IMG/VR virus record: IMGVR_UViG_3300033069_001247
Coordinates: 1 to 64,000 of that record
Strand: one strand, 5' to 3'
DNA: 64,000 bases
Source of the DNA: a virus
Taxonomy: Duplodnaviria > Caudoviricetes
The stretch's first letter is position 1. The number at the start of each line of letters is the position of its first letter. This document shows, in pieces, positions 4,659 to 37,060 of the stretch. Both the position numbers and the translations under genes were made by a program. Below the pieces are notes generated by a model. That model ran no database searches. It was not told where the DNA came from and was given only the letters and a program-made list of their open reading frames with translations.

Positions 4659-6674
4659 ATGGCTACAACGATCGCTGAAAAACTTGCATCGCAGCTGCTC
4701 TGTAAGTTGGATATTACGCAAAGCGATTTCGTTCGTGGCTTCCTGATGAAGTGTGCGTCTGTAGAATACAACGCAAGCGACACCGTCCGAGCCATCAACG
4801 ATGCAGTCAGTATCAGTCCGCACATCAGCCACGAGTTTGAGGTTTGCGGTTTCGAGAAGACGAGCAGTCGTTTGTTTGGGAGTGCTCCGAAGGCACCGGG
4901 AGCCCCGGCTGCTCCGATTAAAGCACCCGCAGCCGCTGCCGCCCCGGCGGCACCGTTCAAACCTGTGGGTTCGCTGTTCGGTAAAGGTCCACGACCGACC
5001 CCGCCAAAGATGCCAGCGACGTTTAACCCCGGCGGCGATAGCCCGTCGCCTTCAATGTTGGGTAGTGCTGCTCGTGGCTTGGGGCAGGGGGCCTTGAACG
5101 TGTTCAACGTACCTTGGGGTATGGCCAAGGGTGTAGCCGGTCGAACGCTGCAGGGTGTCGGTGCCGCCGCAAAACCGCTGGCATGGGCAACCGACACATT
5201 AGGCATCACACAGCACGCGACGCCAGCTGTGGGTGCATTTACAGACAGTCTGGCGGGTGATGCAGCGGCGGGTTTTGCAGACGTAGGTAAGGCCTTCAAC
5301 CCTGCTGAAGCTGCGTTGCCAGGTAGCCACAATACCGCCCGTGTACATCAGCATCAGCAAGAGATGCTCAGTCGCGGACAGAACTGGTCATCTGGTTTTA
5401 CCGGTGCTTTTGACAACGGCGGAAAGATGCTGACCAACATGCTACTTGGTGGCGGCGTTCTTGGTGCTGCAAGCAAGCTCGGACCTGTCAGTAACATGCT
5501 GCAGAAGGCGGCTCCGGTTATGGACAAAGTCGGACCGTTGCTGAATTATGGTGGACAGACGCTAGGGGCCGGGGCAGCGCAGTGGGCGGCACAGCCTGTC
5601 GCTGCCGAATCCGCAACGCCACCAGTCGCCACGCAAGAGAACCCGGTTGTAACCGATCAGCAACCTCCCGAGATGCAGCCCAGTGTGTCTGCCGCACCGG
5701 GAGCAGCCCCACCCGCTCCAACCGCACCGCCGCCGTCGCCAGAGGCACAACCTGCGGCAGCAGGCCAGCAACCGGCACCACAACCGGCGAGTCTGCTGAC
5801 GCAGACACCAGAGTACAAAGAAGTCAGTACGTTGGTGCAGAATGATCCAGAAACAGCGACGCAGCTCGGGCAGCAGGCCGTAGGGCAGATCAAGCAATCG
5901 CTGGACACTCCGGAAGGGGCCGCTGAACTAGGAGCATTGAAAAACACTGGGAAGCTCAGCCCTGACGGGCAACAAAAAGCCATGACGGCTTTGACCGAGA
6001 ACGGGTATGACTGGGACCATGCTCAAAATACCATCATGAACATGGATGGCTGGGAGCAGCTCGGCCTCTGGGGCGGGTTGTCATTGACGGCCTTGGGGCT
6101 CTTGCATGCATTGGGCGGCGAAGGCGGCGTAGGGTCACTACTGATTGGTATGCTGGGTCTTGGCGCGGCCGGATTTACGGCAGCCAAGACGGGCCTGCTC
6201 GATCAGGGTAGCCAGGACATGGCAAACAGCATGCAAACTGCTGTGATGGGTGAACCTTCAGCAGCTCCTCCAGCTACCCCTGCCGCACCTCCGGCTGCCG
6301 CCTCTGCCGGGGCACCCGGTATGATCGATCAGTTGAAGACGAAGGCGGTAGATACCTGGAACAATGCGAAGCCAAAATTACAGGCTGGTGCGTTCGAAGC
6401 GATCAAGCCACAGATTCCGTCAATGATCGACAAAATGCCAGATCAACCAGATCCGACTACGGCCAAAATGCTGTTGTCGCTTGTGCCGCCAGACGCCGCT
6501 GCGGAGTTAGACATGGCGATCGGGCACGGCGGAGCGGGCAATGCGATTGCGAGCTTCTTGGGCGACTTCGGAAATACCACACAGAAACGCATGACTGAAC
6601 GTCTGGGTACCACACCGGAGCAAAATGATAAGCTGCTCCGCCAGTGGGCCTACGCACGAAAGACTGGTCAATAA
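4659..6674 (+). CDS. Large Ala/Gly/Pro-rich protein with hydrophobic Gly-zipper segments (putative internal virion/ejection protein)
   Basis: 671 aa; N-terminal GFLMKCAS module and KxA motifs; Pro/Ala/Gln linker; WGGLSLTALGLLHALGG...LLIGMLGLGAAGFTAAK hydrophobic hairpin. Confidence 0.55.
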   Translation: MATTIAEKLASQLLCKLDITQSDFVRGFLMKCASVEYNASDTVRAINDAVSISPHISHEFEVCGFEKTSSRLFGSAPKAPGAPAAPIKAPAAAAAPAAPFKPVGSLFGKGPRPTPPKMPATFNPGGDSPSPSMLGSAARGLGQGALNVFNVPWGMAKGVAGRTLQGVGAAAKPLAWATDTLGITQHATPAVGAFTDSLAGDAAAGFADVGKAFNPAEAALPGSHNTARVHQHQQEMLSRGQNWSSGFTGAFDNGGKMLTNMLLGGGVLGAASKLGPVSNMLQKAAPVMDKVGPLLNYGGQTLGAGAAQWAAQPVAAESATPPVATQENPVVTDQQPPEMQPSVSAAPGAAPPAPTAPPPSPEAQPAAAGQQPAPQPASLLTQTPEYKEVSTLVQNDPETATQLGQQAVGQIKQSLDTPEGAAELGALKNTGKLSPDGQQKAMTALTENGYDWDHAQNTIMNMDGWEQLGLWGGLSLTALGLLHALGGEGGVGSLLIGMLGLGAAGFTAAKTGLLDQGSQDMANSMQTAVMGEPSAAPPATPAAPPAAASAGAPGMIDQLKTKAVDTWNNAKPKLQAGAFEAIKPQIPSMIDKMPDQPDPTTAKMLLSLVPPDAAAELDMAIGHGGAGNAIASFLGDFGNTTQKRMTERLGTTPEQNDKLLRQWAYARKTGQ

Positions 6675-6934
6675 CCTCAGTCTGTCTTAGAATGCGACCG
6701 CACCCTGTGACTGAGTCGTAACGCCGACTGGTTAGGGACCCCTGAAAACTATGGGATTGGTTGATGGGGTCGTGAGTGTCTTGCCAGATAAAATCGAACC
6801 GCAAGGCAATGGAGGTCAGATGGATGCGTTCTTGATGCCATCTACAAAGACTGTGAACACGGTCATTGGCGCCCGGCGATAGGGGATGCTGGGACGGTCA
6901 CAGGGTGTTTCAGCTTTCACAAGGATGTGACAAC

Positions 6935-7612
6935 ATGAAGCGTCGTATTTTGTTGATTTCAGCAGACAAGGCAGAACGCACGCTTGTCACGACGCAACTA
7001 CAGTCTCGCTTCCGTGCTCTCGACGTGTTTACCGCTGAGACATTGAACAAAGCCCATCAGACGTTCATCGAACACGGCTGCGACATCATACTCAGCAGCC
7101 TGCATCTACCTGATGGCGAGTCACCGCCGAACGTAGCGCATTCCCTGATGGCTATGGCACACTCGGTGCCTGTGATCGTACTTACGAAGCTGACGCATAC
7201 GGATGATGATGTGCTGGATGTCCTGACGATTGGTGTCCGTCACGTCCTCTTTTGTGAAGATCTGAAATCAGAGCCCGTCACGCTGATCAACGCCGTGATC
7301 GAAGGACTTCAGGAGGTGAATGCCCGAGAGGCGCAGTTCGCTGGTTTCGGTGAGCGGTTGCAGATGCTGTCGCAGAAGGTGTATGACGTAGACAACCGCA
7401 TGGCCACCACAGAAGGACTACTGAGCAAATTGACCACGAGCATCAACACATTGGTGGCCAGTATTGATCGACGCGGTGGACTGGAAGATCGCGTAGTTAA
7501 ACTGGAAAACACGCATGCTACTGCGATCAAGTTTGGGCTGTGGTTTGCAGGCATCTGCGGTACGGTGATTGCTGGGCTGATCGTGCATATGCTGGACATA
7601 TTCAAGAAGTGA
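6935..7612 (+). CDS. Pseudo-receiver domain + coiled coil + C-terminal transmembrane helix
   Basis: RRILLISAD...CDIILSSLHLPDG...VPVIVLT is CheY-like, with Ser where the phospho-acceptor Asp is expected; heptad region LQMLSQKVYDVDNRM...; TM FGLWFAGICGTVIAGLIVHML. Confidence 0.7.
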   Translation: MKRRILLISADKAERTLVTTQLQSRFRALDVFTAETLNKAHQTFIEHGCDIILSSLHLPDGESPPNVAHSLMAMAHSVPVIVLTKLTHTDDDVLDVLTIGVRHVLFCEDLKSEPVTLINAVIEGLQEVNAREAQFAGFGERLQMLSQKVYDVDNRMATTEGLLSKLTTSINTLVASIDRRGGLEDRVVKLENTHATAIKFGLWFAGICGTVIAGLIVHMLDIFKK

Positions 7613-7621
7613 TGGTGAGTA

Positions 7622-8497
7622 ATGGGTGACCCGGTTCGTACGTATGCCCTGAAAGGCAAGCTGGCCATTTCTCGAAGTGGCTGGCTGTTGTTGCTTGTAC
7701 CGAACGCCATTGGGAACGGGTTGTTCCAAGCACTCAGTGAACACAACATCGAACAGCCTGTGCAGGAAAGCACAGGGCAATACAACGCTCACGTCTCAGT
7801 CATGCGACCGGAAGAAGTTGAACAGGCGGGTGGGCCTGACGCAATCAAGGCCCGCGGACAGACTGTGGGATTCAACCTCGGCGGTGTGACCGAGATTGCC
7901 AATCCCGGCTCGTGGTCAGAGGTCTCGAAGTGCTGGGTGATCGGGGTGCAATCCCCGGAGTTGATGCAGATCCGCCGGGCAGCAGGTTTGGGCGAACCAA
8001 AATACCCGTTCCATATGACGTTCGCCATCCGCAAAAAGCGGACAGCCAAACAGGCGTCCTACGTCTACCAGGAGAAAGCGGCGGCCACAAACACGACTAT
8101 CAAGGAATCGCCGATTGAAGGGAAGGGGCTTTTCGCCACCAAGAATTTTCAAGCAGGTGACGTGATCAATTCACGCTTCATGGTGCGTTGGCACGACAAC
8201 GGCAAAGACTACTGGGATCAGAGCGAGGAATGCCGTTATGTGAACCATAGCGAGAATCCGAACTGCACGTTGAATACTGGCGAAGAGTATGTACAACTGG
8301 TGGCGTTGGACAACATCGTCAGCGGTACAGAGCTGACTACCGATTACGCAGAATGTCTACCTGTTCTTGGCAAAGATGCCACTTTCACTTATCGTGGTAA
8401 ACCATACGACGGGTCCAGCTCGACGAAGAAGCAAGCCAGTTCAAACCGCTCAAGAGCCACCGACGTGATCCTTCGCAACCTGTATTGTGCTGACTAG
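7622..8497 (+). CDS. 2H-phosphoesterase-like domain fused to SET-domain methyltransferase
   Basis: HVSV (7790) and HMTF (8012) 74 residues apart; SET motifs SPIEGKGLFA, RYVNHSENPNC, ELTTDY; KQAS/EKAAA between the domains and KKQASS after SET. Confidence 0.75.
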   Translation: MGDPVRTYALKGKLAISRSGWLLLLVPNAIGNGLFQALSEHNIEQPVQESTGQYNAHVSVMRPEEVEQAGGPDAIKARGQTVGFNLGGVTEIANPGSWSEVSKCWVIGVQSPELMQIRRAAGLGEPKYPFHMTFAIRKKRTAKQASYVYQEKAAATNTTIKESPIEGKGLFATKNFQAGDVINSRFMVRWHDNGKDYWDQSEECRYVNHSENPNCTLNTGEEYVQLVALDNIVSGTELTTDYAECLPVLGKDATFTYRGKPYDGSSSTKKQASSNRSRATDVILRNLYCAD

Positions 8498-8506
8498 GGG
8501 TGAACT

Positions 8507-9730
8507 GTGGATGTCCTCGGCAGCCTTCAGCGATTGAGTGAACTGGCACCCTGGAAGCAGGTCCCAGAACTGGTACGCACACGATACAAGGAGGCGTCGG
8601 CAATCCAGCGGGACGTGACACGGCTGGTAAAAGCACTGCCCGCGATGGCGTCTGGTTACGGCCACGTCTACTGGAACCCCAAAGAGAAAAGCCTGTGGGG
8701 TGTTGTTGGTGACAGTGACGAAGTGCAGGATGTCCAGCGATTCGAGAATGCACTCAATGCTGTTCACGGGGTAGCCAATGTCCGTGTGGAGTCAGAACAC
8801 GGACCATTCGACGACCCGAACTGGATTCGGATCAAGCGATCGTCAGCGCTGTCGTGGCTCAACGAACCATATCGGGTGGCGGGCTCGTTGCTGAGTGGTC
8901 CGTCACCGTTGTCGAACTCGATCGTCTCGGGGTTACTGGGTAGCGGGGCAGGGTATACCGTTGGTACCGTGGCCGAGAATATGCTGCCTGAGCGATACGT
9001 TGAACGTGGTAAGTTACGTCGCAATCTGGCAATGTTGGGTGGTGCTGCTGGTGTGGCTGCTCACGTACCAGCCGCGATGGCAAACGCCCAGATGAACCGG
9101 AAAGCCACTGGTGACCCACACTGGCAGCGTTCGATTATGGGATCTGATGCCGATCAGCAGCTGGCCCCAAATGAGTCCGACTGGCAGAACCATTATCAGG
9201 CAGGTCATTTCAAACAATCGGTGGCTGCACGTTTGGAATTGGCGAAGAAACATTTGCCAATCCCTGCGGAGTCCACATTACGGATGATTGAAGAGTTCAC
9301 GAAGAAAGCCAGCGGGTACATGACGATGGATTCGGACGTACTGCGACCGGTACCTGTGGACGCATTCAACAATGCTATCTGGAACGACGTGCATAACGGT
9401 GTTCATTCATCACAGTCCAACCCTTACGGGACACGGAGCCCATACGGCGACAACAGCGAATCATTTCGGACACCTGCAATCAATGCGGCGGCAGCTGTTG
9501 GGTTGGTTACTGGTGTGCAGCAGATGTATGGCGGGTCGTCTGTCCTTTCGCCGAAGCACTTTGTCAAAGGACTGGCTGCCGCAGGTGTGGACGCCGCGAC
9601 CGCACATATCGCCGGGGGTGTACTCGGGGCTCTCGGCGGACTGACACCGGAAGCTCAGCAGCAGCTGCAGCAAATGGGGCTGTGGAGTGGTATGATTCGC
9701 GGCGTAACCAGTTCTGTTCTTGGGTTGTAG
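8507..9730 (+). CDS. Gly-zipper, KxA-containing hypothetical protein (putative internal virion protein)
   Basis: GTG start; SGLLGSGAGYTVG, MLGGAAGVAAH, GGVLGALGG segments; YKEAS, TKKAS motifs. Confidence 0.55.
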   Translation: MDVLGSLQRLSELAPWKQVPELVRTRYKEASAIQRDVTRLVKALPAMASGYGHVYWNPKEKSLWGVVGDSDEVQDVQRFENALNAVHGVANVRVESEHGPFDDPNWIRIKRSSALSWLNEPYRVAGSLLSGPSPLSNSIVSGLLGSGAGYTVGTVAENMLPERYVERGKLRRNLAMLGGAAGVAAHVPAAMANAQMNRKATGDPHWQRSIMGSDADQQLAPNESDWQNHYQAGHFKQSVAARLELAKKHLPIPAESTLRMIEEFTKKASGYMTMDSDVLRPVPVDAFNNAIWNDVHNGVHSSQSNPYGTRSPYGDNSESFRTPAINAAAAVGLVTGVQQMYGGSSVLSPKHFVKGLAAAGVDAATAHIAGGVLGALGGLTPEAQQQLQQMGLWSGMIRGVTSSVLGL

Positions 9731-9740
9731 CGAGGAAGCA

Positions 9741-10580
9741 ATGGCGATTGACACGGATGCAAAGACCTTGAGCTGGTTACGGCGGTTTGGCTACCTGACC
9801 AGTGACACGCCAACTCCAGCACAACTGGAAGCGGCAGTCGTCAAGATGCAAGAGATCTATGGTTTGACTACTGATGGCTGGGCCGGTCCGGTTACACGTA
9901 AAGCCATGAATATGTTTCGCTGTTCGCAGCGCGATGCAAACATTCTCATGGTAACCAATCCAAATGCGGTTACCGATGTGACGACACGATGGCAGAAAAC
10001 CGAGATCACATACGCTGTCGATCCCGGGATGATCTTGGCAGACAACAGGGCGGAGTGTCTTAGTATCATCCGTGCCGGGTTCAACTATTTCGCACCACTG
10101 ACTGGGCTGACGTTCAACGAAGAGGATGACTACGACGCTGCTGACATCAAGATTACGGCAGAGACGAAAGCGTCGGGTATGGACGGCGTCGGTAACATCC
10201 TGGCACTGTCTGGTATGCCCAACGGGATAACTGATCGTCCGTTACGGACAATCTTCGACAAGGACGAACCGTGGCAGCTGCAACCCAATGGTCCGGGAAT
10301 CATATTCCAGGCAGTCTGGATGCATGAGCTGGGGCACCTTCTCGGATTATCCCACAGCAGTAGTCCGGATGACCTGATGTCGCCGTACTACTCACCCACC
10401 ATGCTGTTTCCGCAAAAGCACGACAAACAAAGACTTGCTCTGCTTTACGGGATCCCGTATGTCGAGGGGTCTGACAACGTACAGCTACCTGTAGGGGCCT
10501 ACTCCACCAGTGGTATATTTGTGGTTCGCCACGATGGCGGAATTGCCATAAATCTGCGGGAGATTGTGCCCACAACCTGA
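9741..10580 (+). CDS. Matrixin-like (M10) zinc metalloprotease with PG-binding-like prodomain
   Basis: WLRRFGYL...MQEIYGLTTDG...AMNMFRCSQRD prodomain; RWQKTEITY; HELGHLLGLSH (HExxHxxGxxH at 10323); Met-turn LMSPYY. Confidence 0.9.
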   Translation: MAIDTDAKTLSWLRRFGYLTSDTPTPAQLEAAVVKMQEIYGLTTDGWAGPVTRKAMNMFRCSQRDANILMVTNPNAVTDVTTRWQKTEITYAVDPGMILADNRAECLSIIRAGFNYFAPLTGLTFNEEDDYDAADIKITAETKASGMDGVGNILALSGMPNGITDRPLRTIFDKDEPWQLQPNGPGIIFQAVWMHELGHLLGLSHSSSPDDLMSPYYSPTMLFPQKHDKQRLALLYGIPYVEGSDNVQLPVGAYSTSGIFVVRHDGGIAINLREIVPTT

Positions 10581-12009: not shown

Positions 12010-12852
12010 ATGCCGTCGAACATTGGAAGTATGCCCGTCATTGATGACAACAACAGCCAGCAGTTCATCAATCCGATAATTGACGGGCATCAGCGGATGT
12101 GTTCGCTGATGCCTCGTGACATGATCAAGTACCCGCAAGGGGGCTGTGGATTCGCGGCCCTACGTCCGTTTAACACCTACACCAAGGCAGAACTGCTACA
12201 ACGCATCCGTGAAAAGGAAGCGGCCAAGTCGGGGCTCAAACACATCCTCGACGCTAAGGGTGTGCCTGTGAAAGATCAGGACGGTATCCCGTACTGCTGG
12301 ATCTACTCCACAGTCCACACTGTCGAGATCGCCTACGTCGTACAGGGTGACAACGAGGTTTACATTCCGTTGTCGGCGACGGCGGCTGGTACGATTATCA
12401 CCGGCGGGGTCAGCCGCGGCGGGTACGGCGCTGAGGCAATTGACTTCCTGTCCAAACACGGTGTCTGTCGAGAGATCGATTGGCCGGAACACCAGATCAA
12501 TCTGCGTCGGCGTACGCCACAAATTGACGCGATGGCGAAGAACAGCATCATCACCGACTGGGGTGAACTCCCCAGCGGTGACTTGAATCAGTTGGCAGCT
12601 GCCGTGCTGAACAACTTTCCTGTCACGATTGGTCTGCCGTGGTGGGGGCATCAGGTCACAATCATCGACCTGGTTATTCTGCCTGGCGACGTGATCGGAT
12701 TTGTGTTCAACAACAGCTGGGGGATGTCGTGGGGTGATCGTGGTCGTGGTATTCTGACCCCGAACAAGGCTCACGGCGATATGTTCTACCCGATTTCGGT
12801 ACGTCCTCGCTCCGAAGACGTACGCACACTTGGTCCTCTGATTGCGGCGTAA
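12010..12852 (+). CDS. Papain-like (C1A-type) cysteine protease
   Basis: KDQDGIPYCW (oxyanion Gln, catalytic Cys), WGHQVTII (His), FNNSWGMSWGDRG (Asn, NSWG). Confidence 0.88.
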   Translation: MPSNIGSMPVIDDNNSQQFINPIIDGHQRMCSLMPRDMIKYPQGGCGFAALRPFNTYTKAELLQRIREKEAAKSGLKHILDAKGVPVKDQDGIPYCWIYSTVHTVEIAYVVQGDNEVYIPLSATAAGTIITGGVSRGGYGAEAIDFLSKHGVCREIDWPEHQINLRRRTPQIDAMAKNSIITDWGELPSGDLNQLAAAVLNNFPVTIGLPWWGHQVTIIDLVILPGDVIGFVFNNSWGMSWGDRGRGILTPNKAHGDMFYPISVRPRSEDVRTLGPLIAA

Positions 12853-12878: not shown

Positions 12879-13874
12879 ATGAAGACGAATCCCATGACGG
12901 TTATCATCGTCTGCCTGGCAATTGTCTGGTGGGTGAACAGTAGCGGGAACACGATGCCCATCGTGGCCCAGGCTGCAGAGTCTGCAGCACCAGCAGTCGA
13001 ATCGGAATCGACGGTTGATTATGGTGACGTACCGGCGACAGGGGCTGTGGGTGCTACGCCTGTGATCGACGGTGTAGGTGACCTGGCTAAAGCCCAGCCT
13101 GACGCGTTCGGCGATGTACCAGCTCCGCCAGAAGCCGGTTCCGCGTTTGCCAACATCCCGCCGGGTGTCGCGTCGACACCACCGGCGTCAGACTGGGTCA
13201 ATAACGTCGTGCCCGTCTTGAGTAACAACTCAGGAACGTGTGCAGTAGCAGTTGGTCCCGAGACGCTGCTGGGTGTCTACCACGGGGTCAAGTACAACCG
13301 GGCACGTGTAACGCTCAACGGGGCGGAGGTGATTACGGCTGTGCAGCATCCACCCGGTGTCAATGATTACGACCATGATGCGGCATTGCTGAAGATCCCC
13401 AACGGAAAACTGTCGTTTATGCCGACACGGGCACCGATGTACTACGAGCCTGTTACCGTTTACGGATTGGCCACCAAAACAAAGATGCGTGGCTTCGTGT
13501 CCGCTTATCGCTACGTCAGCTTGCTTCCCGAAACGCCGGGCGTGCGTAGCGGTGATTCTGGCGGAGCCGTAGTGGCCGACGATGGTTGTCTGGTCGGGGT
13601 TATCAGCGGTCTCGTCAAGGGCTTTGACGGGCTACCAGATAACCCCAGGATTGTGTCGTTCACCCGCGCCGATTACGTGATGCCCTATCTTCCACGTAGC
13701 GGAATGTCAGCAGCTAACCAGTCAATTCCTAACCCGGTGGGACCTGTGGACGGGCCAGCGTTCCCAGACACCCAACCAGCGGTAAATAAGAACCAGTCAG
13801 CCAACGTTCCTTCATACAGTTACCAGTGGCAATGGCAGGGGTATGGCTCTCCTCGCCGCCGCATGTTCCGGTAA
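12879..13874 (+). CDS. Trypsin-like serine protease with N-terminal membrane anchor
   Basis: TM VIIVCLAIVWWV; acidic Pro/Ala linker; triad YHGV, DAALL, GDSGG; LVGVISG. Confidence 0.85.
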   Translation: MKTNPMTVIIVCLAIVWWVNSSGNTMPIVAQAAESAAPAVESESTVDYGDVPATGAVGATPVIDGVGDLAKAQPDAFGDVPAPPEAGSAFANIPPGVASTPPASDWVNNVVPVLSNNSGTCAVAVGPETLLGVYHGVKYNRARVTLNGAEVITAVQHPPGVNDYDHDAALLKIPNGKLSFMPTRAPMYYEPVTVYGLATKTKMRGFVSAYRYVSLLPETPGVRSGDSGGAVVADDGCLVGVISGLVKGFDGLPDNPRIVSFTRADYVMPYLPRSGMSAANQSIPNPVGPVDGPAFPDTQPAVNKNQSANVPSYSYQWQWQGYGSPRRRMFR

Positions 13875-16680: not shown

Positions 16681-17674
16681 TCCGGTGTACAACGATCCGA
16701 CTTCTCAGGCAATGGCTAAAGAAGTTGCCGTCCGAAACGTGATGAAGATGCTGGGGGTTGGAGCCGCGGCAGGTGTTGGTATCCGCGGTGTCATGGGGCT
16801 GGGTGCGATGATGAGCAACCAAGATCTGCCTGTGATGCCCAGTAATAACCTGCCGCATACTTTGCGAATCCAGCGCAGGCCACAAGAGCGACAAAGCAAC
16901 GGTTTGCCTGCCATGCCGAAGTTCGCAATGGCCTTGCCGCCTATGTTGCAGTCCGGGATAGATATGGCCCGGACCGGACTCAACAACGTCAGCAACAGTG
17001 TGCAGACGGCAGCGGGTAAGGCAGGTGATTTTCTGGGTAAACTCCCGGAGAAGATCGTCAAGACTGTTGCCCCGCATACACCGGATACGCATACACGGAA
17101 CCCTTCGCTGGATGAATGGAGCATGCCTGCAGGGGCACTGGCGCTTGGCGGCGGTGGTTACGCCGGATACAAAGCATTGGATTGGCTGCTCGGTAAAGAG
17201 CGAAGCAGCACAGGGGCTCGCGAACTGCAGGATGCCGAGGACGAGTACCATCAAGCACTGGCCGCACAGTATCAGGCCGCCATGATGGGAAAGCAGGCTG
17301 GGGATGATCTCGGGCTGACCGCGTTGGCTGACCAGTACATCAATGACCCTGATAGTCTGAAACCGGTTGATACCGGTATGCAGAAGGAGGCGTTCCTGCC
17401 ATCCATCCTGGGCAAAATTTTCCCGCAGTTGGATTCGGCTTATGCCAATATGCCGTTTGTTGGTCATGATCGCTGGCAGGCATTCAAGGGGGCGGTTAAC
17501 ACCGCGTCAACGGCAGCTCTGTTGGGCGCCGGAAAAGTAACGTATGATTGGGCCAAGGGGCAGAACCGACAGGAGCTGCTACGTAAAGCACTGGCTCAAC
17601 GGCAAATGGCCCGCCAACGGCTTTCACCGCCACCACTCGTAGCGATCAACGAGGACGACCAGGATGGAACCTGA
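16670..17674 (+). CDS. KxA/Gly-zipper protein immediately upstream of RNAP
   Basis: MLGVGAAAGVGIRGVMGLG, ALALGGGGYAGY; PKFAM, GKQAG, QKEAF motifs; overlaps the RNAP start. Confidence 0.6.
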   Translation: MSSSPVYNDPTSQAMAKEVAVRNVMKMLGVGAAAGVGIRGVMGLGAMMSNQDLPVMPSNNLPHTLRIQRRPQERQSNGLPAMPKFAMALPPMLQSGIDMARTGLNNVSNSVQTAAGKAGDFLGKLPEKIVKTVAPHTPDTHTRNPSLDEWSMPAGALALGGGGYAGYKALDWLLGKERSSTGARELQDAEDEYHQALAAQYQAAMMGKQAGDDLGLTALADQYINDPDSLKPVDTGMQKEAFLPSILGKIFPQLDSAYANMPFVGHDRWQAFKGAVNTASTAALLGAGKVTYDWAKGQNRQELLRKALAQRQMARQRLSPPPLVAINEDDQDGT

Positions 17675-20600
17675 AAGCAGCATTCTCGGATCACTCCCTG
17701 ATCCGACAACTGAACTGCCTGCGGCTCAGCATCAGCAAATTACCCCTGCGTTACCACCGGCCACTAAGCCGGTGGTACCGTCGTTTCGTAACTTCGGCGA
17801 TACGCAGCGAACGCGGCAATTGATTTTTGACAACGTGCTGAAGGCCGCTCAGGAAATTGAACCTGTCCAGAACCAGCGACACAGTTTGTCGATCGAGAAC
17901 CCCCGGTGGGCAGGTGCAGACAGCTATTCCATTGCTGAGCAGAAGCAAGCAATTCTCAGCCGCGGTACGCTGGGGCGAAAGCTGGTTGGTGATTTTGTCA
18001 TGCGTGATCTGAACGGTGCCGAAATCGGTCGTCGCAGCACGCAGTTGGCTCGTGTCCCTTACATGACAGATAGAGGTACATTCATCGTTGGCGGCAACGA
18101 ATATACGATGGCTCATCAGATGCGGCTTCGTCCTGGCGTGTTCACCCGTAAAAAGCAAAATGGGGAGCTTGAAAGCCATGTCAACGTGTCCAAAGGTGCC
18201 GGTCATCACGTCTACATCGACCCTGCCTCGGGTGTGTTTCGAATTGCCATCGGGCAAGCCAAAATCCCGCTGGTCCCACTCTTACGAGCTATGGGTGTCA
18301 GCGACGGACAGCTTCGCGAAGCCTGGGGGAATTCACTTACAGCGGTGAACATGCAGCATGCCGATCCACAGGCCATCAAAAAGCTGCACGACCGACTCTT
18401 TCGGTATGGACGTAAAAATGAAGCCGGAGAGGCAGCAGACGCCGCGGTCGCGAGGGCATTTAGCGAAATGACACTGGACCCCGAGGTGACCAAGCGAACC
18501 CTGGGGCAGCCATTTTCAAATGCCAACGCCGATATGCTACTGGCTGTGACCAAGAAACTACTGCGTGTATCTCACGGTGAAGATGAAACAGACGATCGTG
18601 ACGCACTGGCCTATCAAAAGCTGGTCGGTCCGGAAGACATCTTTGCAGAGCGACTTCGACGAGCAAAGAATGTCACGCGACAGTTGCTTTGGAAAGCCTC
18701 CGCACGGGGTAATCTGGACAACATGGGATCGAATCCGTACGACGATTCGATTCGCGACGGGTTACTGGGCTCCGGACTTGGGCAACCACTCGGTGAAATC
18801 AATCCTGCCGACATCTTTGACCAACAGGTACGCGTCACACGGATGGGGCAAGGCGGTATCACCAACATGGACGCCGTGCCTGACGAGGCCCGGTCAGTTC
18901 AGCCGTCACAATTTGGGTTTGTGGACTTCCTCCGGACGCCTGAGTGCTATGATTACGAAACTGAAGTCATGACCAGGCAGGGTTGGAAATACTGGCCTGA
19001 TGTTGTCGCGACTGATGAGCTGGCTTGTCAGGTTGATGGGCGGTTGGAGTATCACGTACCACACAAGCTGCATTGTTATCCGTATATCGGTGAACTTTGT
19101 GGTGTGGACACTGGTCGTATTCGGTACCTCGTAACGCCGAACCACCGGGTCTGGGTTCGCAGTTTCCATAAAACTGCTACATATCATTTCGAAGATGCCG
19201 ATCGTGTAAAGAATTTCCGGAAGGTTCAATCTGGCGGCTTCCTGCCGTACATCGGCAGTGATGAGACTGTGTTCCGATTGCCGAAGGTCGCGATCGCACA
19301 CAACCCGCAACAAGTTGCAATGTCAACCACGCTTAACGCTGTCGATTCAATTGATATCGACGACTGGGCTGAGTTTATGGGTTGGTGGCTGGGCGAAGGA
19401 TCATCTTGTTACAAAGAAAGTGACGGCAACGGCAATGTGCTTTACCGCGTCCGTATTTCGCAAAGTCTTGAAGCTAATCCAGCGAACTACGCACAGATTG
19501 ACCTGTTGCTTTCACGCTTACCGTTCAAGTCGTACAAAGACTCGGACAACTGCGGATTTACGATTCCAGGTAAACAGCTAACAGCTTACCTGCGACAGTT
19601 TGGTGGAAGTCACGAACGACACATTCCAGAATCATTGCTACGATCGCGAGTATCTGCGAGACGTAGACTGTTCGAAGCGTTACTGCTGGCTGAGGGTCGC
19701 CGTGATCGTCGCGATGTACGCACACAGTTCTGTACGACAAGCAGGCAGCTCGCAACCGATTTTCAGCGATTGGCGTTCTCACTCGGCTACTCGACGCAGT
19801 ACGCATGGGAGCCTGACGACCGGGAACAATCAAATCATGGCGGGGCACATATTATCCATGTGCATAAGCTAAATGAGCATCAAGTGTTTACCAAACGATC
19901 ACCGTCACAAGGTGGTTGTGGTGATCATTACCGGCAGGCGTATAACGACAATGTGTATTGTGCCACTGTCCCTGGTGGGTTGCTTTACGTGCGGCGTCAG
20001 AACGGACTTGGTCACTGGTCTGGTAATAGTGGCAAGGTCGGCGTGGACGCTCGCCTGGCCGGTGGTGCTGTCAAAGGTGATGATGGTCAGATCTATACCA
20101 AGGTCCGTATGACCGACGGCACAGAGGCCTACAAGAACCCACAGGAGATGGCTGATGCTGTCGTAGCTTTTCCGGGTGAAATCAATCAGAACTCCTCCCA
20201 CGTAGCAGCACTGGTCAAGGGTAAAGTCCGAATGGTTCCCCGCGAAAGCGTGGACTTCGAGATCCCTGATATGGAGCACACGTTCTCGCCACTCGGGAAC
20301 ATGGTACCCAACAAGTCTGCCGTAAAGGGTCAACGCGCAGTGATGGCTGCCCGTATGATTACGCAGGCCTTGCCGCTGCGGAATGCAGAGGCCCCGCATG
20401 TACAAAGCGGCATGCCAGGGCGGACGGACCGGTCGTTTGAAGAGGAATACGCCAAGCATATGGGCGCTGTCCATGCGGACACAGCAGCCCGTATCGAAAG
20501 CGTCGACAGCGACAGCATCAACATGGTGACTGCTGATGGGCAGCGGAAGACAATCCAATTGTACAACAACTTCCCGTACAACCAGAAGACGTTCCAGCAC

Positions 20601-23600
20601 CAGACGGCGACTGTAAAGCCAGGAGATATCGTACAACCAGGACAACTCCTGGCCCGGTCAAATTTCACAGACGCCAATGGCGTCACTGCGTTGGGACTCA
20701 ATGCGCGGGTGGCCTACATTCCCTGGGGCGGGCTCAACTTCGAAGACGCCAACCTGGTCAGCGAGTCATTTGCTAAACGGGCTACGTCCGAGCATATGTA
20801 CCAGCATCAGCATGAGTGGGAGAGTAACGATCAGACGGGTAAAAATGCCTTTGTCTCGATCTTCCCATCCACGTATGACAAGAAGATGCTGGAGAATTTT
20901 GATGACAGCGGTGTGATCAAACCCGGGACTACCGTGAAGCACGGAGATCCATTGATCCTGATCGCCCGGCAGAAAGAGCGGAACAAGAAATCACTGCTGC
21001 AGGGTACCAAGCCCAGCTTTCAGGATATGACGCAGACTTGGGACCATGAAGACGACGGTGTCGTTACCGATGTGGTGCATACCGATAAGGGTGTCTCCGT
21101 GGTGGTGAAGGCCAGCGTTCCGATGCAGGTCGGCGATAAGCTGTGTTTCGATGAAGACACAGAGGTACTTACACGCCGAGGCTGGATACGTGTTGGTGAA
21201 CTGACATTCGATGATGAGATCTGTACGTTGCAGCGTGGTGATAACATTGTGTATCACCACCCGACGGCACTGCATCAGTACGCCGTCGGCGGAGATATGT
21301 ATCGCATCAAGAGCCAACAAATTGATCAATTTGTGACTGTTGATCATGCGCAGTATGTGCAGCATCGCGGTAGCGACGACTTTGTACCAACACGTGCGTC
21401 ATCTGTGCTCGGTAAACGGGTGCGATATAAGAAGAATGGTAACTGGCGAGGCAGAAGTCCTGCGTGCGTTATCATTCCTGGTGTCGACGTACGTGCGGGT
21501 CAATCCGGTAACGGTACACGTCGATTATCAGACATCACACTTACGACTGAGACATATTTGACAATTCTGGGTGCGTTCATTTCTGAAGGTAATCTTGTAG
21601 ATAACCCACAGAGTGGGTCCTACGGGATTGACATCACACAGATCAAGCAGCCAAATCGATCACAGATTATGGCTGAACTCGAACGTCTCGGCATCAAGTT
21701 CAATGAACACGGTGTAGGTACAAAATTGCGTATCTACAGCAAAGTATTGTTGAAACATTTTGAACAATTTGGACGAACCGCCAGTGAGAAACATCTACCA
21801 GCGACTATCTTTGACTGGTCGAAATCTGATTTGCAGATTCTGTTCCGTTGGTTGATGTGGGGCGACGGGTATAGGCACCATACACAACGACCGGTGAACT
21901 ATACGACGACATCACCGCAACTGGCGGATGACGTTCAACGCTTATGTCTGCACATTGGTTATGCAGCCAATGTGGTCAATGATATGCCCGCTACGGTACA
22001 AACAATCAAAGGTAAACAATATGAGTGTTTACCAAGATACAGTGTGCGTGTTGTGACGACTAAGCTCACACCAATGGTGAACCACGGACATACAAAAAAA
22101 CAACGTGTGCAAGAGGAGTACATTGTCAAAGATTACGATCGTCCGGTGTTCTGCGTTACTGTACCTGGGCATGTGTTGTATGTACGTCGGAATGGTAAGC
22201 CTTGCTGGAGTGGCAACTGTGGTCGTTATGGCGATAAAGGTATCATTTCTCACATCATTCCTGATGATCAGATGCCTGTTGGCGCTGACGGCAAACCTTT
22301 CGAAATTTTGTTAAATCCTTTGGGCGTAATATCAAGAACCAATCCTGCACAGATGATTGAAGCCGCCCTTGGAAAGATTGCTGCTCAGCGGGGGCAGGCT
22401 TACAAGATGCCGGACTTCCAGAACCAGGACGATCTGGTCGAGTACGCACTGAGCGAACTGCAGAAGGCTGGAATGAGCGATACGGAGAGCATCACAGATC
22501 CGACCAACGATCGGAAGATTCCAGATGTATTTACCGGTAATCGCTGGTTTATGAAGCTCCATCACACCTCGGAGTCCAAGGCCCAGGGCCGCGGACTCGG
22601 AGCATACACCGCAGAAGGTGTCCCGGCGAAGGGGGGACCAGAAGGGGCTAAACGTATCGGGATGCTGGAGACGAACGCTTTGCTGTCTCACGGGGCCACA
22701 GAAGTGCTGCGTGGTGGTAGTCTGGTGCGTGGGCAGTCAAATCCACAGTTCTGGGCACAGTACATGAGCGGTTTCAAGCCGCCGACACCAGAGGTCCCTG
22801 GGGTTTACCACAAGCTGGTTAACAATCTGCGGGCGTCAGGTATAAATGTCATCCGGGACGGTACGCGGACGCATATCATGGCCCTGACAGACAAAGACAT
22901 CGACCAGATGGCAAGTAACCGTGAACTTCGGAACGTGGAAACGGTCGATTGGAAGAACATGGAGCCCGTCAAGGGTGGGTTGTTCGATCAAGAGTTGACC
23001 GGTGGGCACTCGACATCAGCAGGCGGCGGTAACCGCTGGAGCTACATCAAGCTGCACGAACCGTTGCCAAGCCCCGTGATGGCGGAGCCTATTCGCCGAG
23101 TGCTTGGTATCACCGAAAAGAAGTTTGAGGATGTACTGGCCGGGCGTGAGCAGCTCAACGGTAGCACTGGTCCTGGCGCGATTGGTCACGCGTTGAAGTC
23201 CATCAACGTGGACAATGAGATCGCACGCGCCCGTGAAGAGATCAAGAGCAACAAGCGGACTGCTCGAGATGCGGCAGTCCGCCGGTTGGGTTACCTCAAG
23301 AACGCCAAGCGGTTGAATATCCATCCGGGCGACTGGATGTTGTCCAAGGTTCCTGTGTTGCCGCCCGCATTTCGACCTGTATCAACGATGGGCGCAAATA
23401 AGCTGCCACTGGTAGCCGACGCGAACTACCTGTACAAAGAACTCTGGGACGCCAATCAAAGTCTGAAAGACCTATCGTCCCACCTGGACGAGAATGACAT
23501 CGGTGACGAACGATTGAACGTCTACAAGGCATTCAAGGCAGTGACGGGTCTTGGTGATCCGACGCATGCCAAGAATCAAGAACGAAAAGTGAAAGGGATC

Positions 23601-24281
23601 CTCCAGCATGTCTTTGGATCATCGCCCAAACTCGGACTTGTCCAACGTCGGCTCCTGGGTTCGACGACCGATCTCGTCGGTCGTGCGGTTATTGCACCTG
23701 ATCCTGATCTCGATATGGACCAGGTGGGTATCCCTGAAAACCAAGCCTGGACAATCTATCGCCCAGTGCTCATCCGAAACCTTGTCCGAAAAGGCGTCCC
23801 TCGCCTGCAGGCCGCTAAAGCCGTTGAAGAGAAAACCCCGCTCGCTCGGCAGGCACTCCTCTCGGAAATGGATGAAGGCGTGGTAGTGATCAACCGGGCT
23901 CCGACGCTGCATCGTTATGGGATGATGGCAGCGAGACCCCGTCTGGTGAAAGGAAACGTACTCAAGATCAGCCCGCTTGTGGTTGGCGGTTTCGGGGCTG
24001 ATTTTGATGGCGATGCCATGCAGTATCACGTCCCTGTCGGTGACGATGAGAAGAAGGAAGCCATCGAGAAGATGCTACCCAGCAGAAATCTGTTGTCGGC
24101 TGCCACGTTTAAGGTTCACATATTACCTACACAAGAGTATATTGGTGGGCTGTACGAAGCGACGGCACGTAAAGACTTGATGAACAAGCCTATCGTGTTC
24201 CGTACGAAACGTGACGCCATACGTGCCTACAAAGAAGGACGCATCAATGTCGACAGACAAATCCACATCATCGAAGACTAG
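17664..24281 (+). CDS. rpoB: Phage multisubunit RNA polymerase: beta subunit fused to N-terminal (RpoC1-like) part of beta', with two inteins
   Basis: beta motifs RGTFIVGGNE, NFEDANLVS, GDKL|CGRYGDKG, LNPLGVISR, MKLHH, KRIGMLETNAL; then beta' motifs GGLFD, VPVLPPAFRP, GRAVI, NRAPTLHR, GADFDGDAM, PTQEYIGGLY in one frame. Confidence 0.95.
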   Translation: MEPESSILGSLPDPTTELPAAQHQQITPALPPATKPVVPSFRNFGDTQRTRQLIFDNVLKAAQEIEPVQNQRHSLSIENPRWAGADSYSIAEQKQAILSRGTLGRKLVGDFVMRDLNGAEIGRRSTQLARVPYMTDRGTFIVGGNEYTMAHQMRLRPGVFTRKKQNGELESHVNVSKGAGHHVYIDPASGVFRIAIGQAKIPLVPLLRAMGVSDGQLREAWGNSLTAVNMQHADPQAIKKLHDRLFRYGRKNEAGEAADAAVARAFSEMTLDPEVTKRTLGQPFSNANADMLLAVTKKLLRVSHGEDETDDRDALAYQKLVGPEDIFAERLRRAKNVTRQLLWKASARGNLDNMGSNPYDDSIRDGLLGSGLGQPLGEINPADIFDQQVRVTRMGQGGITNMDAVPDEARSVQPSQFGFVDFLRTPECYDYETEVMTRQGWKYWPDVVATDELACQVDGRLEYHVPHKLHCYPYIGELCGVDTGRIRYLVTPNHRVWVRSFHKTATYHFEDADRVKNFRKVQSGGFLPYIGSDETVFRLPKVAIAHNPQQVAMSTTLNAVDSIDIDDWAEFMGWWLGEGSSCYKESDGNGNVLYRVRISQSLEANPANYAQIDLLLSRLPFKSYKDSDNCGFTIPGKQLTAYLRQFGGSHERHIPESLLRSRVSARRRLFEALLLAEGRRDRRDVRTQFCTTSRQLATDFQRLAFSLGYSTQYAWEPDDREQSNHGGAHIIHVHKLNEHQVFTKRSPSQGGCGDHYRQAYNDNVYCATVPGGLLYVRRQNGLGHWSGNSGKVGVDARLAGGAVKGDDGQIYTKVRMTDGTEAYKNPQEMADAVVAFPGEINQNSSHVAALVKGKVRMVPRESVDFEIPDMEHTFSPLGNMVPNKSAVKGQRAVMAARMITQALPLRNAEAPHVQSGMPGRTDRSFEEEYAKHMGAVHADTAARIESVDSDSINMVTADGQRKTIQLYNNFPYNQKTFQHQTATVKPGDIVQPGQLLARSNFTDANGVTALGLNARVAYIPWGGLNFEDANLVSESFAKRATSEHMYQHQHEWESNDQTGKNAFVSIFPSTYDKKMLENFDDSGVIKPGTTVKHGDPLILIARQKERNKKSLLQGTKPSFQDMTQTWDHEDDGVVTDVVHTDKGVSVVVKASVPMQVGDKLCFDEDTEVLTRRGWIRVGELTFDDEICTLQRGDNIVYHHPTALHQYAVGGDMYRIKSQQIDQFVTVDHAQYVQHRGSDDFVPTRASSVLGKRVRYKKNGNWRGRSPACVIIPGVDVRAGQSGNGTRRLSDITLTTETYLTILGAFISEGNLVDNPQSGSYGIDITQIKQPNRSQIMAELERLGIKFNEHGVGTKLRIYSKVLLKHFEQFGRTASEKHLPATIFDWSKSDLQILFRWLMWGDGYRHHTQRPVNYTTTSPQLADDVQRLCLHIGYAANVVNDMPATVQTIKGKQYECLPRYSVRVVTTKLTPMVNHGHTKKQRVQEEYIVKDYDRPVFCVTVPGHVLYVRRNGKPCWSGNCGRYGDKGIISHIIPDDQMPVGADGKPFEILLNPLGVISRTNPAQMIEAALGKIAAQRGQAYKMPDFQNQDDLVEYALSELQKAGMSDTESITDPTNDRKIPDVFTGNRWFMKLHHTSESKAQGRGLGAYTAEGVPAKGGPEGAKRIGMLETNALLSHGATEVLRGGSLVRGQSNPQFWAQYMSGFKPPTPEVPGVYHKLVNNLRASGINVIRDGTRTHIMALTDKDIDQMASNRELRNVETVDWKNMEPVKGGLFDQELTGGHSTSAGGGNRWSYIKLHEPLPSPVMAEPIRRVLGITEKKFEDVLAGREQLNGSTGPGAIGHALKSINVDNEIARAREEIKSNKRTARDAAVRRLGYLKNAKRLNIHPGDWMLSKVPVLPPAFRPVSTMGANKLPLVADANYLYKELWDANQSLKDLSSHLDENDIGDERLNVYKAFKAVTGLGDPTHAKNQERKVKGILQHVFGSSPKLGLVQRRLLGSTTDLVGRAVIAPDPDLDMDQVGIPENQAWTIYRPVLIRNLVRKGVPRLQAAKAVEEKTPLARQALLSEMDEGVVVINRAPTLHRYGMMAARPRLVKGNVLKISPLVVGGFGADFDGDAMQYHVPVGDDEKKEAIEKMLPSRNLLSAATFKVHILPTQEYIGGLYEATARKDLMNKPIVFRTKRDAIRAYKEGRINVDRQIHIIED
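18945..20027 (+). mobile_element. Intein 1 with LAGLIDADG endonuclease (361 aa) in beta at TPE|SGKVG
   Basis: Starts CYDYETEV, ends YVRRQNGLGHWSGN, +1 Ser; blocks FMGWWLGEG and LFEALLLAEG; removal restores an ETPE-G-x-x-G-like motif. Confidence 0.93.
21144..22217 (+). mobile_element. Intein 2 with LAGLIDADG endonuclease (358 aa) in beta at GDKL|CGRYG
   Basis: Starts CFDEDTEV, ends YVRRNGKPCWSGN, +1 Cys; blocks ILGAFISEG and LFRWLMWGDG. Confidence 0.93.
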
Positions 24282-25633: not shown

Positions 25634-25885
25634 ATGAAGATTCAGATCCACCGCAATCTGCGTGACGTTCAGACACTGGATGTCACGCGGGTTGTGGTGC
25701 TCGACGAATACGATAACCCTGTCGCCCTGGCCATTGCCCTAGATGACGGAATCATCCTGGCCGAGACGGCAGGTAACCCAGTCGAGTTCAATTCCTTACT
25801 GCGAAGCGTAGGGATCAACAAGACAGTAGTTGTTCACGGTGTCAAGCAAGACCCGCTTCCTACGATCAAACTTTCCGGGCCGTGA
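25634..25885 (+). CDS. Small hypothetical protein between RNAP genes
   Basis: 83 aa, beta-rich; its stop lies 1 nt before the beta'-C ATG. Confidence 0.6.
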   Translation: MKIQIHRNLRDVQTLDVTRVVVLDEYDNPVALAIALDDGIILAETAGNPVEFNSLLRSVGINKTVVVHGVKQDPLPTIKLSGP

Positions 25886-25886
25886 C

Positions 25887-28800: not shown

Positions 28801-28949
28801 GCAGCTATCAGAAGAACAGTATTCTGGATGCTGCACACAACGGCGCAGTCTCTGACGAAGCAGGTAGCAGCTTTGTTCCAGCGCTGGCCCGCGGCGTGGA
28901 TTTCGGGCGTGTTGGACTAACCAAAGGATGGAAGCCGCAGACACCGTAA
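25887..28949 (+). CDS. rpoC: Phage RNA polymerase beta' C-terminal (RpoC2-like) subunit with intein
   Basis: SGARGN, FGARKGVIDLK|SATQDAGF (bridge helix), VRSP, GVAGAQALAEPVTQSQISSKHSGG (trigger loop), VKRGDTIEAGDVLTEG, RRNIELLARG. Confidence 0.92.
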   Translation: MLNTTLGQLMVNQALPAELQDHQRVLDKKGIKALLQQVADKHPDKYREIAKRLSDIGRDAAFTTGGYSFGLGSLRQSVAARKMRHELTSKLQEIYASQEPDDVKEQKILMTVGGYQKQLSQDVMKESLDVRNPLALQVLSGARGNHTNLNSLRGADLLYTDHRGRAMPIPVTRSYSMGLRPYEYFAGAFGARKGVIDLKCLGGDTPVVMADWSVKKICDIKQGDYVMGSDTAGRLRPVKVLNVFDNGKRECYNWRFRVGSCRKRFADVVATADHKILAQVRAGRPGSTYAYRSSYTPLPLPLHTAKLQKKATKNAFVAWPARGEVNSENGIAEPRAMLLGLLLGDGYTPEKTGHTLSCADQCLIDDTATYLASLNLKLNPPKDGYSHRLVEIVRSKQKMEVRNNRNTFAGTGNPVRQWLHDVGCTGKLAHEKQLPAVVWQWNRDSICQLIGGLIATDGTIEVRNDGCTVKFKLTSLQIVSQVQRLLELRLGIWCTPIRRIPVETIPLGNYDQWEITFSHPEAIRRFIDLVYVPGIKHHQLQEGLRKLSAEPRSAEIGFKIQSREAVGMIQTYDIEVDHPDHLFLLENGLVVSNSATQDAGFFAKQLVQAAHRLLVSQIDDEREYDHSNPRGYPVDTGDNDTEGALLAHPIGGYKRNTVLTPKILKELRANGMREILVRSPTVGGPADGGVYARDVGVRERGGIAPLGDYVGVAGAQALAEPVTQSQISSKHSGGVVGASAGAISGFKYINQLVQSPKVFQGGAVHSQKDGRITNVRPAPQGGTYVTVENEDHYIPHGIQIQVKRGDTIEAGDVLTEGTPQPAEIAKHKGVGEARYYFTNTFRKALTDSGTYGNRRNIELLARGLINHVRLTDEVGDGIPGDVVPYQLLESRWQPREGHTINAPERAVGQYLERPVLHYTVGTRVRPSMLSKFKQYGVANLAVHKDPPPFEPEMIRGMANAANDPDWMTRMLGSYQKNSILDAAHNGAVSDEAGSSFVPALARGVDFGRVGLTKGWKPQTP
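26484..27665 (+). mobile_element. Intein 3 with LAGLIDADG endonuclease (394 aa) in the beta' bridge helix
   Basis: Starts CLGGDTPV, ends HLFLLENGLVVSN, +1 Ser; blocks LLGLLLGDG and LIGGLIATDG. Confidence 0.93.
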
Positions 28950-29020: not shown

Positions 29021-29030
29021 ACATGGAGGT
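29021..29030 (+). promoter_or_regulatory. RBS with ACATGGAGGT (CsrA/Rsm consensus match)
   Basis: The same 10-mer occurs at 39707 and 41930; 7 nt before ATG 29038. Confidence 0.5.
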
Positions 29031-29037
29031 TATTCGG

Positions 29038-31515: not shown

Positions 31516-31527
31516 GCGGAGTGACTC

Positions 31528-31953: not shown

Positions 31954-31986
31954 TTGACAGTCGGTCTCCAGTGAAGCGAGCAGAGC

Positions 31987-32982: not shown

Positions 32983-32987
32983 TCAGC

Positions 32988-35460: not shown

Positions 35461-35495
35461 GCCATTGTCAATTGCAGTCAGGGAGGCTGCGACAC

Positions 35496-37016: not shown

Positions 37017-37060
37017 AAATTCCGGACAGGGATTTCAGTTTGACAAAGGAGTTGTCGCAA

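Follow-up and report, generated by a model that had tools for sequence, protein, structure and literature searches.

A 2H phosphoesterase-SET methyltransferase protein of an uncultured jumbo phage as a candidate short polyvalent cargo protein with K-x-A-[AS] joints

The T4 protein Alt is an enzyme that is packaged and injected. In the polyvalent proteins of phages, 2H and InPase are phage-only domains for which packaging, injection, an action on RNA or nucleotide signals and a role against nucleotide-based defence have been predicted (Iyer et al. 2017, PMC5512222), and about 36% of the described polyvalent proteins contain an embedded zincin-like peptidase, MPTase (PMC5512222). In giant phages, numerous head and ejection proteins are cleaved by the head protease at a P3-x-P1 motif that favours Ser at P1'; the cut follows the Glu of A-x-E in SPN3US and of A/S/G-x-E as the phiKZ/SPN3US motif (PMC10052503). 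In T4 the head protease cuts after the Glu of L/I-x-E. Here we describe a 291-residue protein that consists of a 2H phosphoesterase domain, a SET methyltransferase domain and a short C-terminal tail (the 2H-SET protein), encoded at positions 7622-8497 on the + strand of the window, a 64-kb stretch which is the start of the 86.8-kb viral contig of IMG/VR record IMGVR_UViG_3300033069_001247. We propose, with a little more than even confidence, that it is a short polyvalent cargo protein whose linker joints are cut by the head protease and which is delivered by the virion.

The open reading frame (ORF) of the 2H-SET protein, P0001 in our set, runs from ATG to TAG, and an in-frame TGA two codons 5' of the ATG excludes a longer N-terminus. 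The CheckV completeness of the 86.8-kb contig is 43%, which implies a phage of about 200 kb; the source is an uncultured jumbo phage. An earlier note on this DNA, made from the letters alone, had named a series of motifs in the protein and had assigned them to a 2H phosphoesterase and an intact SET domain. All of the motifs are present: HVS at residues 57-59 and HMT at 131-133, 74 residues apart; AKQAS at 142-146, EKAAA at 151-155 and KKQASS at 269-274; and the SET motifs GKGLFA at 167-172, NHS at 208-210 and ELTTDY at 237-242. Both domains scored over the curated Pfam cut-offs. AlphaFold2, run on the full protein with an alignment of relatives, returned two folded domains, residues 1-140 with a predicted local distance difference test score (pLDDT) of about 90 and residues 157-250 with about 80, and the pLDDT fell below 50 at 141-155, at 269-281 and in the last three residues.

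Relatives were collected by an exhaustive profile-free search, which gave 815 at E ≤ 1e-3; their features were taken from the 150 best listed, and Pfam was run on 81 relatives. The 2H domain covers residues 1-140 (7622-8041, + strand), with HVS at nucleotides 7790-7798 and HMT at 8012-8020. PF22547 (2H-SAK) scored 29.3 bits on the window protein, a narrow margin over the cut-off of 27, and matched 80 of the 81 relatives with a best E of 4.7e-15. H57, H131 and T133 were invariant in both alignments of relatives (A1 and A2) and S59 was nearly invariant in A1, and both H-x-T/S motifs were located on strands of the N-domain model (57-61 and 131-138). The N-domain modelled alone reached a pLDDT of 94.9 and a predicted template modelling score of 0.86 (AlphaFold2). 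When this domain was compared with 48,161 PDB representatives by VIA-align, the best 21 matches were all 2H enzymes, with Z from 3.7 to 6.7. The best match was Acb1 (Z 6.7, root-mean-square deviation (rmsd) 3.4 Å, 104 residues), followed by the Deinococcus CPDase drCPDase (6.4), Usb1 (5.9), CNPase (5.9), LigT (5.8) and ns2 of mouse hepatitis virus (MHV; 5.7), and then by the poxvirus cyclic GMP-AMP (cGAMP) phosphodiesterase, a Burkholderia phage phosphodiesterase, AKAP18, Appr>p CPDase, rotavirus VP3 and ASCC1. With the N-domain model as query, Foldseek returned nothing at E ≤ 1e-3; its matches were weak (best E 8.8e-3), and the best-ranked ones were mostly 2H proteins. A PDB sequence search with the N-domain family profile found no match, Acb1 included. 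The 2H fold was therefore assigned from VIA-align and Pfam, and sequence and model together identify the N-domain as a 2H phosphoesterase with conserved catalytic residues.

Since the Z-scores are modest and tied across the 2H enzymes, they assign the fold and do not point to one substrate. The Acb1-like role suggested in the earlier note agrees with the 2H fold, and it is not singled out by the matches, as the Z of 6.7 for Acb1 is within 1 Z of CPDase, Usb1, CNPase and LigT; an anti-CBASS activity (against the cyclic-oligonucleotide-based antiphage signalling system) may be one among several 2H activities which the fold allows. The chemistry could be hydrolysis of defence second messengers, as in Acb1, or of 2',3'-cyclic phosphate ends. 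Like Acb1 (the T4 gene 57B product), MHV ns2, rotavirus VP3 and the poxvirus cGAMP phosphodiesterase, this is a small viral 2H domain of about 140 residues with two HxT/S motifs. Unlike with those similarities of size and motif, there is no sequence-level relationship to Acb1 (no Pfam or PDB sequence match), and whereas Acb1 is a free cytoplasmic protein, the 2H domain here is the N-terminal module of multidomain proteins.

The SET domain covers residues ~156-262 (8087-8407, + strand) with the motifs GKGLFA, RYVNHSxNPN and ELTTDY. PF00856 scored 42.7 bits on the window protein against a cut-off of 22.4. PDB sequence matches were MLL1 (E 1.7e-6) and vSET; Foldseek also returned MLL1 (E 2e-6) and vSET (3kma, target-normalised TM-score 0.68, rmsd 3.3 Å), and the identity to any solved SET domain was about 20-24%. 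G167 and G169 (GxG), N208-H209, N214, E237 and Y242 were conserved in the 37 family SET domains, and the catalytic Tyr was kept in 33 of the 33 that were aligned. The sequence and structural matches identify the C-domain as a minimal SET lysine methyltransferase in which no catalytic motif is missing, and from their sequences both enzymes look catalytically active. Like PBCV-1 vSET and the bacterial and archaeal SET proteins, it has a core of ~100 residues without pre-SET or post-SET Zn modules, in which GxG, NH and the catalytic Tyr are present; unlike vSET, it is found in a tailed phage and is fused to a phosphoesterase. A literature search for a phage virion SET enzyme found nothing.

The two domains are joined by a disordered linker at residues 141-155 (8042-8086, + strand), which contains two sites of the form K-x-A-[A/S], KQAS at nucleotides 8048-8059 and KAAA at 8075-8086. 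A third site, KQAS at residues 270-273 (8429-8440, + strand), is in the second disordered stretch, and K-x-A-S is found at the equivalent place before the tail in the relatives P0004 and P0013. All three sites are thus inside segments with pLDDT below 50. Three occurrences compare with 0.23 expected from the composition of the protein (Poisson P(≥3) = 0.0017), and K143 was kept in at least 90% of alignment A1.

The same motif was counted in the 79 + strand proteins of this phage, whose + strand holds almost all of its genes, and compared with 300 within-protein shuffles. The pattern K.A[AS] occurred 47 times against 16.3 ± 4.0 expected, and the stricter K.AS 20 times against 6.0 ± 2.2; none of the 300 shuffles reached either count. 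In an unbiased scan of three- and four-residue patterns, KTAA, KQAA, K.AS and EK.A ranked directly below collagen-like fibre repeats, which makes the K-x-A type the top non-repeat short motif of this proteome. The scan was dominated by a 492-residue protein encoded beyond the window (G000:C1:74312-75790) with ~75 overlapping collagen-like words of the PTGP/GSGP type.

The sites were not evenly distributed. Four head-module proteins (ORFs 29023, 32988, 35370 and 36965, within 29023-38446, + strand) contained 30 of the 47, or 12.9 per 1000 residues, and these sites adjoin the probable major capsid gene. The genes at 4659, 7622 and 8507 contained seven (5.1 per 1000), and the remaining 22,964 residues contained ten (0.44 per 1000); the sheath had none and the 2205-residue polymerase had one. 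The phiKZ/SPN3US-type [SAG]-x-E was ruled out as the motif of this clade, with 267 observed against 298 expected. The head modules of five relatives (184-229 kb) were located through the orthologue of ORF 35370, and in them K.A[AS] was observed 25, 28, 21, 15 and 4 times against 4.1, 4.6, 4.5, 4.7 and 1.2 expected, the last count coming from only 7 ORFs. K.AA or K.AS was among the top patterns in three of the five, and site positions were kept among head-module orthologues that are just 40-55% identical. Hence the head modules of at least four of the five relatives repeat the enrichment. The flanks (±10 kb) of 78 related loci showed a modest enrichment of K.A[AS], 568 against 393, because the flanks seldom extend to the head module. 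These counts show that K-x-A-[AS] is a real, conserved, non-random signal at module joints.

Among the 150 best listed relatives, nearly all matched residues ~2-145 of the window protein at or near the N-terminus of proteins of 166-2046 residues. Behind this constant 2H domain, Pfam found InPase in 30 and SET in 24 of the 81 relatives, along with NUDIX, DUF5661, SNF2 helicase, the LigD 3'-phosphoesterase (LigD_N), acylphosphatase and others, and Peptidase_C39 in 2-4 of the 81; by phmmer, SET was present in 37 of 163 family members. The architectures included 2H-SET-InPase (six cases), 2H-SET-SNF2 and 2H-NUDIX-InPase (2046 residues), and in the relative P0029 (724 residues, one ORF) 2H-SET is fused to a full-length homologue of the next gene. 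The InPase, NUDIX and LigD 3'-phosphoesterase partners, as read from these sequences, point to nucleotide or RNA-end chemistry for the 2H domain.

The placement of the motif in the family follows the domain borders. In 136 representatives (50%-identity clusters) its density was 15.9 per 1000 residues in the leader before the 2H domain, 0.05 inside the 2H domain (1 site in 18,281 residues), 16.9 in the 35 residues after it and 2.9 in the rest of the protein. In the 2H-SET subfamily a double interdomain site, K-x-A-S-[LFI]-I-H-x-x-K-x-A-A, was conserved, with further sites after the SET domain. Most members have a leader of ~20-45 residues, Y-D/E-L/I-G-x-A...L...K-x-A-[AGS]-D, and in most of the 99 leader-bearing members with K.[AS][AGS] the leader Lys was 11 residues before the domain anchor. 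This leader, Y-D/E-L/I-G-x-A-x-x-x-L ... K-x-A-[AGS]-D, is a candidate capsid-targeting propeptide. About 12 leaderless representatives, including the window protein, start with M-(G/S/A)-D/E, exactly one residue after the K-x-A position, and a SET-InPase gene without 2H starts with M-T-S-L-I-H-F, at the residue after the first linker site. Since these genes begin just behind the Ala of K-x-A, the scissile bond is likely to follow the Ala (P3 = K, P1 = A, P1' = A/S/G). Such coincidences would be expected if K-x-A is a cut point at which modules can be added or deleted harmlessly. The SET-InPase gene (L095:3001-4179, on a ~52-kb contig) is in the syntenic slot of the locus, which reads receiver-like gene, X, ~400-residue gene and matrixin gene, and the SNF2 helicase is a separate upstream gene on the same contig, an instance of module shuffling at the locus.

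The C-terminal tail of the window protein, residues 274-291 (8441-8494, + strand), for which a helix is predicted at 277-288, is what remains, in divergent form, of a conserved C-terminal module of the family. In its full form this module has ~90 residues and ends 24 of 163 representatives irrespective of the middle domains (e.g. P0005, P0023, P0025 and P0030), with the consensus '..Y.NA...TP..WD...G...N...H....K.RGD..I.EA....R.QNA.DP.R...Q...YL.G.RQP.V.HP.D..L.G', and K-x-A-A usually precedes it. The module was considered as a general packaging tag in this phage and rejected, as its hidden Markov model found no convincing copy in other proteins of this genome (best match E 0.002 over 32 residues).

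The pattern resembles the substrates of the T4, phiKZ and SPN3US head proteases in its three-residue P3-x-P1 motif, which recurs many times in head, portal-like and ejection proteins, in its small P1' residue and in the leaders of many substrates. It is unlike them in that the motif is K-x-A-[A/S] and in that the sites separate whole enzymatic domains, not only propeptides. Herpesvirus assemblin cuts after the Ala of (V/L/I)-x-A with Ser following, a site which is like the present one in having Ala at P1 and Ser at P1' and differs by Lys at P3. The fold of assemblin is stated to be that of the phage prohead proteases as well (Cheng et al. 2004, cited in PMC10052503).

The candidate for the protease itself is ORF 35370-37016 (+ strand), which has six K-x-A-[AS] sites of its own and was conserved in all five relatives tested. 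Its nearest named clusters in a protein atlas built on a language model were Peptidase_S78, S77 and S80, with scores of 0.88-0.90. Pfam at E ≤ 1 on eight head-module proteins gave nothing, and neither did PDB sequence searches with this ORF alone and with a 4-sequence profile. In two relatives the orthologues (G003:C1:148065-150653 and G004:C1:134561-137173) are 865-880 residues long and their match to the candidate protease is split in two. The large inserts in these two genes are probably inteins, as structural neighbours in the atlas carry LAGLIDADG/Hint.

The 2H-SET gene recurs with particular neighbours. In the 78 viral loci of the 2H gene, a homologue of the next gene adjoins it in 60, and the giant RNA polymerase gene is present in 44. 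From the motif shared with head proteins and the linkage to the RNA polymerase block we infer packaging and delivery, in the following way. The 2H-SET precursor would be incorporated into the prohead, where K-x-A-[AS] would serve as the protease site and the head-maturation protease, possibly the product of ORF 35370-37016, would cut after the Ala of K-x-A when A, S or G follows. Cuts at residues 145/146, 154/155 and 272/273 would yield a ~16-kDa 2H enzyme, a ~13-kDa SET enzyme and a C-terminal peptide of ~19 residues, and the enzymes would enter the host together with the DNA. In the host, the substrate hydrolysed by the 2H enzyme would be of the 2',3'-cyclic-phosphate, 2'-5' or cyclic-oligonucleotide kind (an immune signal or a damaged RNA end), and the lysine methylated by the SET enzyme would belong to a protein of the host or to one that is co-injected. 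The comparison of sequences supports such cleavage through the bracketing of the 2H domain, the gene starts and the head-module motif. The bracketing by putative maturation sites that the earlier note had described thus holds as to sites that are conserved, non-random and at the domain joints, and fails at the N-terminus, where no site is found. Its idea of an injected effector fits the architecture, which places the protein in a class of phage proteins for which packaging and delivery are presumed.

The 2H-SET protein is like the polyvalent proteins (PMC5512222) in combining unrelated enzymatic domains in one phage polypeptide and in sharing the 2H domain, and its relatives add InPase, NUDIX and SNF2. 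It is unlike them in several respects. SET is not mentioned there, nor in the jumbo-phage survey by the same authors; Pfam found no peptidase domain in the window protein, and its joints share the motif of the head proteins, implying a protease that acts in trans; and the protein is very short, with two domains, the 2H domain being a constant N-terminal module before a variable C-terminus. What is new relative to the known polyvalent and cargo proteins is therefore the SET domain and the trans-protease joints.

Several observations weigh against the cargo proposal. Unlike T4 and SPN3US substrates, the window protein has no N-terminal K-x-A site or leader and begins with M-GDP, at the point of the predicted mature N-terminus of its relatives; if the leader is a capsid-targeting signal as in T4, the 2H-SET protein may miss packaging by that route. 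Some 20 kb separate the gene from the head module, and its neighbours encode a receiver-like membrane protein and three peptidases; with this position its timing and location are not obvious. In addition, the 2H fold was matched with modest structural Z-scores (5-6.7), the 2H N-domain family was found in no cultured phage (tblastn, cultured-phage records), the role of ORF 35370-37016 as the head protease is only a language-model lead, and the conserved K-A-A-S-L/F-I-H stretch that follows the 2H domain could act as a mobile lid, as in Acb1-type phosphodiesterases, in place of a cleavage site or in addition to being one.

The missing leader and the position outside the head module also favour an intracellular, non-virion enzyme that keeps both domains in one full-length chain, with K-x-A-[AS] as an uncut docking or assembly signal, a chaperone site or a 2H lid. 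K-A-A-S-L-I-H is at a fixed distance after the 2H core and could be part of the enzyme, and 2H phosphodiesterase structures from a Burkholderia phage have been deposited under titles that name an 'open lid' and a 'closed lid'; the literature on the Burkholderia phage BCSR5 phosphodiesterase was searched and nothing relevant was found. Against such an uncut enzyme stands the strong enrichment of the motif in unrelated proteins of the head module, both here and in relatives; the motif is also found in N-terminal leaders and between other domains, and neither a lid nor a docking signal predicts ORFs that start exactly after K-x-A. We therefore regard it as unlikely, and as the strongest of the alternatives.

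Cleavage could instead take place in the cytoplasm or at the membrane by a neighbouring peptidase, as a polyprotein-style processing of effectors which are not packaged. Three peptidase genes are 1-5 kb downstream, a matrixin-type peptidase gene accompanies the 2H gene in 50 of the 78 loci, and Lys could in principle be recognised by a trypsin-like enzyme. However, the occurrence of 30 of the 47 sites in four head-module proteins is the substrate pattern of a prohead protease in phiKZ/SPN3US-type phages, and the N-terminal membrane anchors or signal-like segments on the trypsin-like and other peptidases suggest a location in the envelope, which leaves this processing quite improbable. The further suggestion of the earlier note, that the SET enzyme methylates the Lys of K-x-A and thereby regulates cleavage, could appeal to lysines in short linear motifs as SET targets, to vSET among the structural neighbours and to the histone H3K27 site methylated by vSET, which reads K-S-A-P and fits K-x-A, but as a general mechanism it is very improbable, because Pfam finds SET in only 24 of 81 family members and phmmer in only 37 of 163, and four relatives that are 93-100% complete (CheckV) have no SET anywhere while at least three of them keep the head-module enrichment, so that the motif works without SET.

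A wider version of the cargo proposal is more speculative, and we consider it doubtful. K-x-A with a cut after the Ala would be a universal joint in a large clade of uncultured jumbo phages, and any enzyme placed between such joints behind a 2H domain, or inside the virion RNA polymerase, would be loaded, released and injected. In that case the locus would serve as a plug-and-play cassette of effectors (2H, SET, InPase, NUDIX, SNF2 and others). The SET enzyme would be the first protein lysine methyltransferase that a phage injects, and at the moment of infection it would modify a host protein of the nucleoid, of translation or of defence.

Two neighbouring genes share the motif. The next gene (8507-9730, + strand) encodes a Gly/Ala-rich protein of 407 residues with K-x-A-S at residues 28 and 266, and it matched P0029 residues 325-724 over its full length with 53% identity. 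Its start codon, GTG at 8507, is in frame with the 2H-SET ORF, and the spacer is only TAG-GGG-TGA-ACT. The one-ORF state in P0029 suggests, from the sequence, a recent split or fusion at 8495-8509. Upstream, an Ala/Pro-rich protein of 671 residues (4659-6674, + strand) has K-x-A-S at residues 8 and 31 and is likely a co-substrate. Between the latter and the 2H-SET gene, just upstream of it, the gene at 6866-7612 encodes a receiver-like domain (Response_reg, below cut-off), a coiled region and a C-terminal transmembrane helix, and its position is kept in relatives. The three downstream peptidases are a matrixin M10 with PG_binding_1 (9720-10580), a papain-like enzyme by its orthologue (12010-12852) and a trypsin-like enzyme with an N-terminal hydrophobic segment (12879-13874).

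The genes of the viral contig include RNA polymerase, sheath and capsid. The 2205-residue gene of the multisubunit RNA polymerase (17664-24281) joins the beta and beta' N-terminal domains in one gene, by Pfam on an orthologue. The gene for the beta' C-terminal part (25830-28949) matched LAGLIDADG_3 and Hint, an intein-like insert. The probable major head protein is encoded at 39722-40654 and the tail sheath at 45856-48777. Even the nearest cultured phages are very remote: Salmonella phage Arash shows 27% identity across half of the sheath. With tblastn, the 2H-SET protein had no match among 50,697 cultured-phage records, and the long relative P0041 matched cultured-phage records through its helicase part only.

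If the 2H-SET protein is cytoplasmic and uncut, it is a rare phage SET fusion and otherwise ordinary. If the cargo proposal is true, it would be a compact and tractable case of ready-made enzymes being delivered by large phages along with the DNA, and would offer a defined cleavage code (a cut after K-x-A), a constant phosphoesterase module and swappable partners. The 2H enzyme would be a candidate anti-defence enzyme, a hydrolase of cyclic oligonucleotides or 2',3'-cyclic phosphates which is in place before any phage gene is expressed, and protein lysine methylation would join ADP-ribosylation, acetylation and nucleotide-signal hydrolysis among the chemistries of injected effectors. For hundreds of genomes of uncultured phages, the motif would also provide a sequence rule from which the cargo of the capsid and the ends of mature proteins could be predicted.

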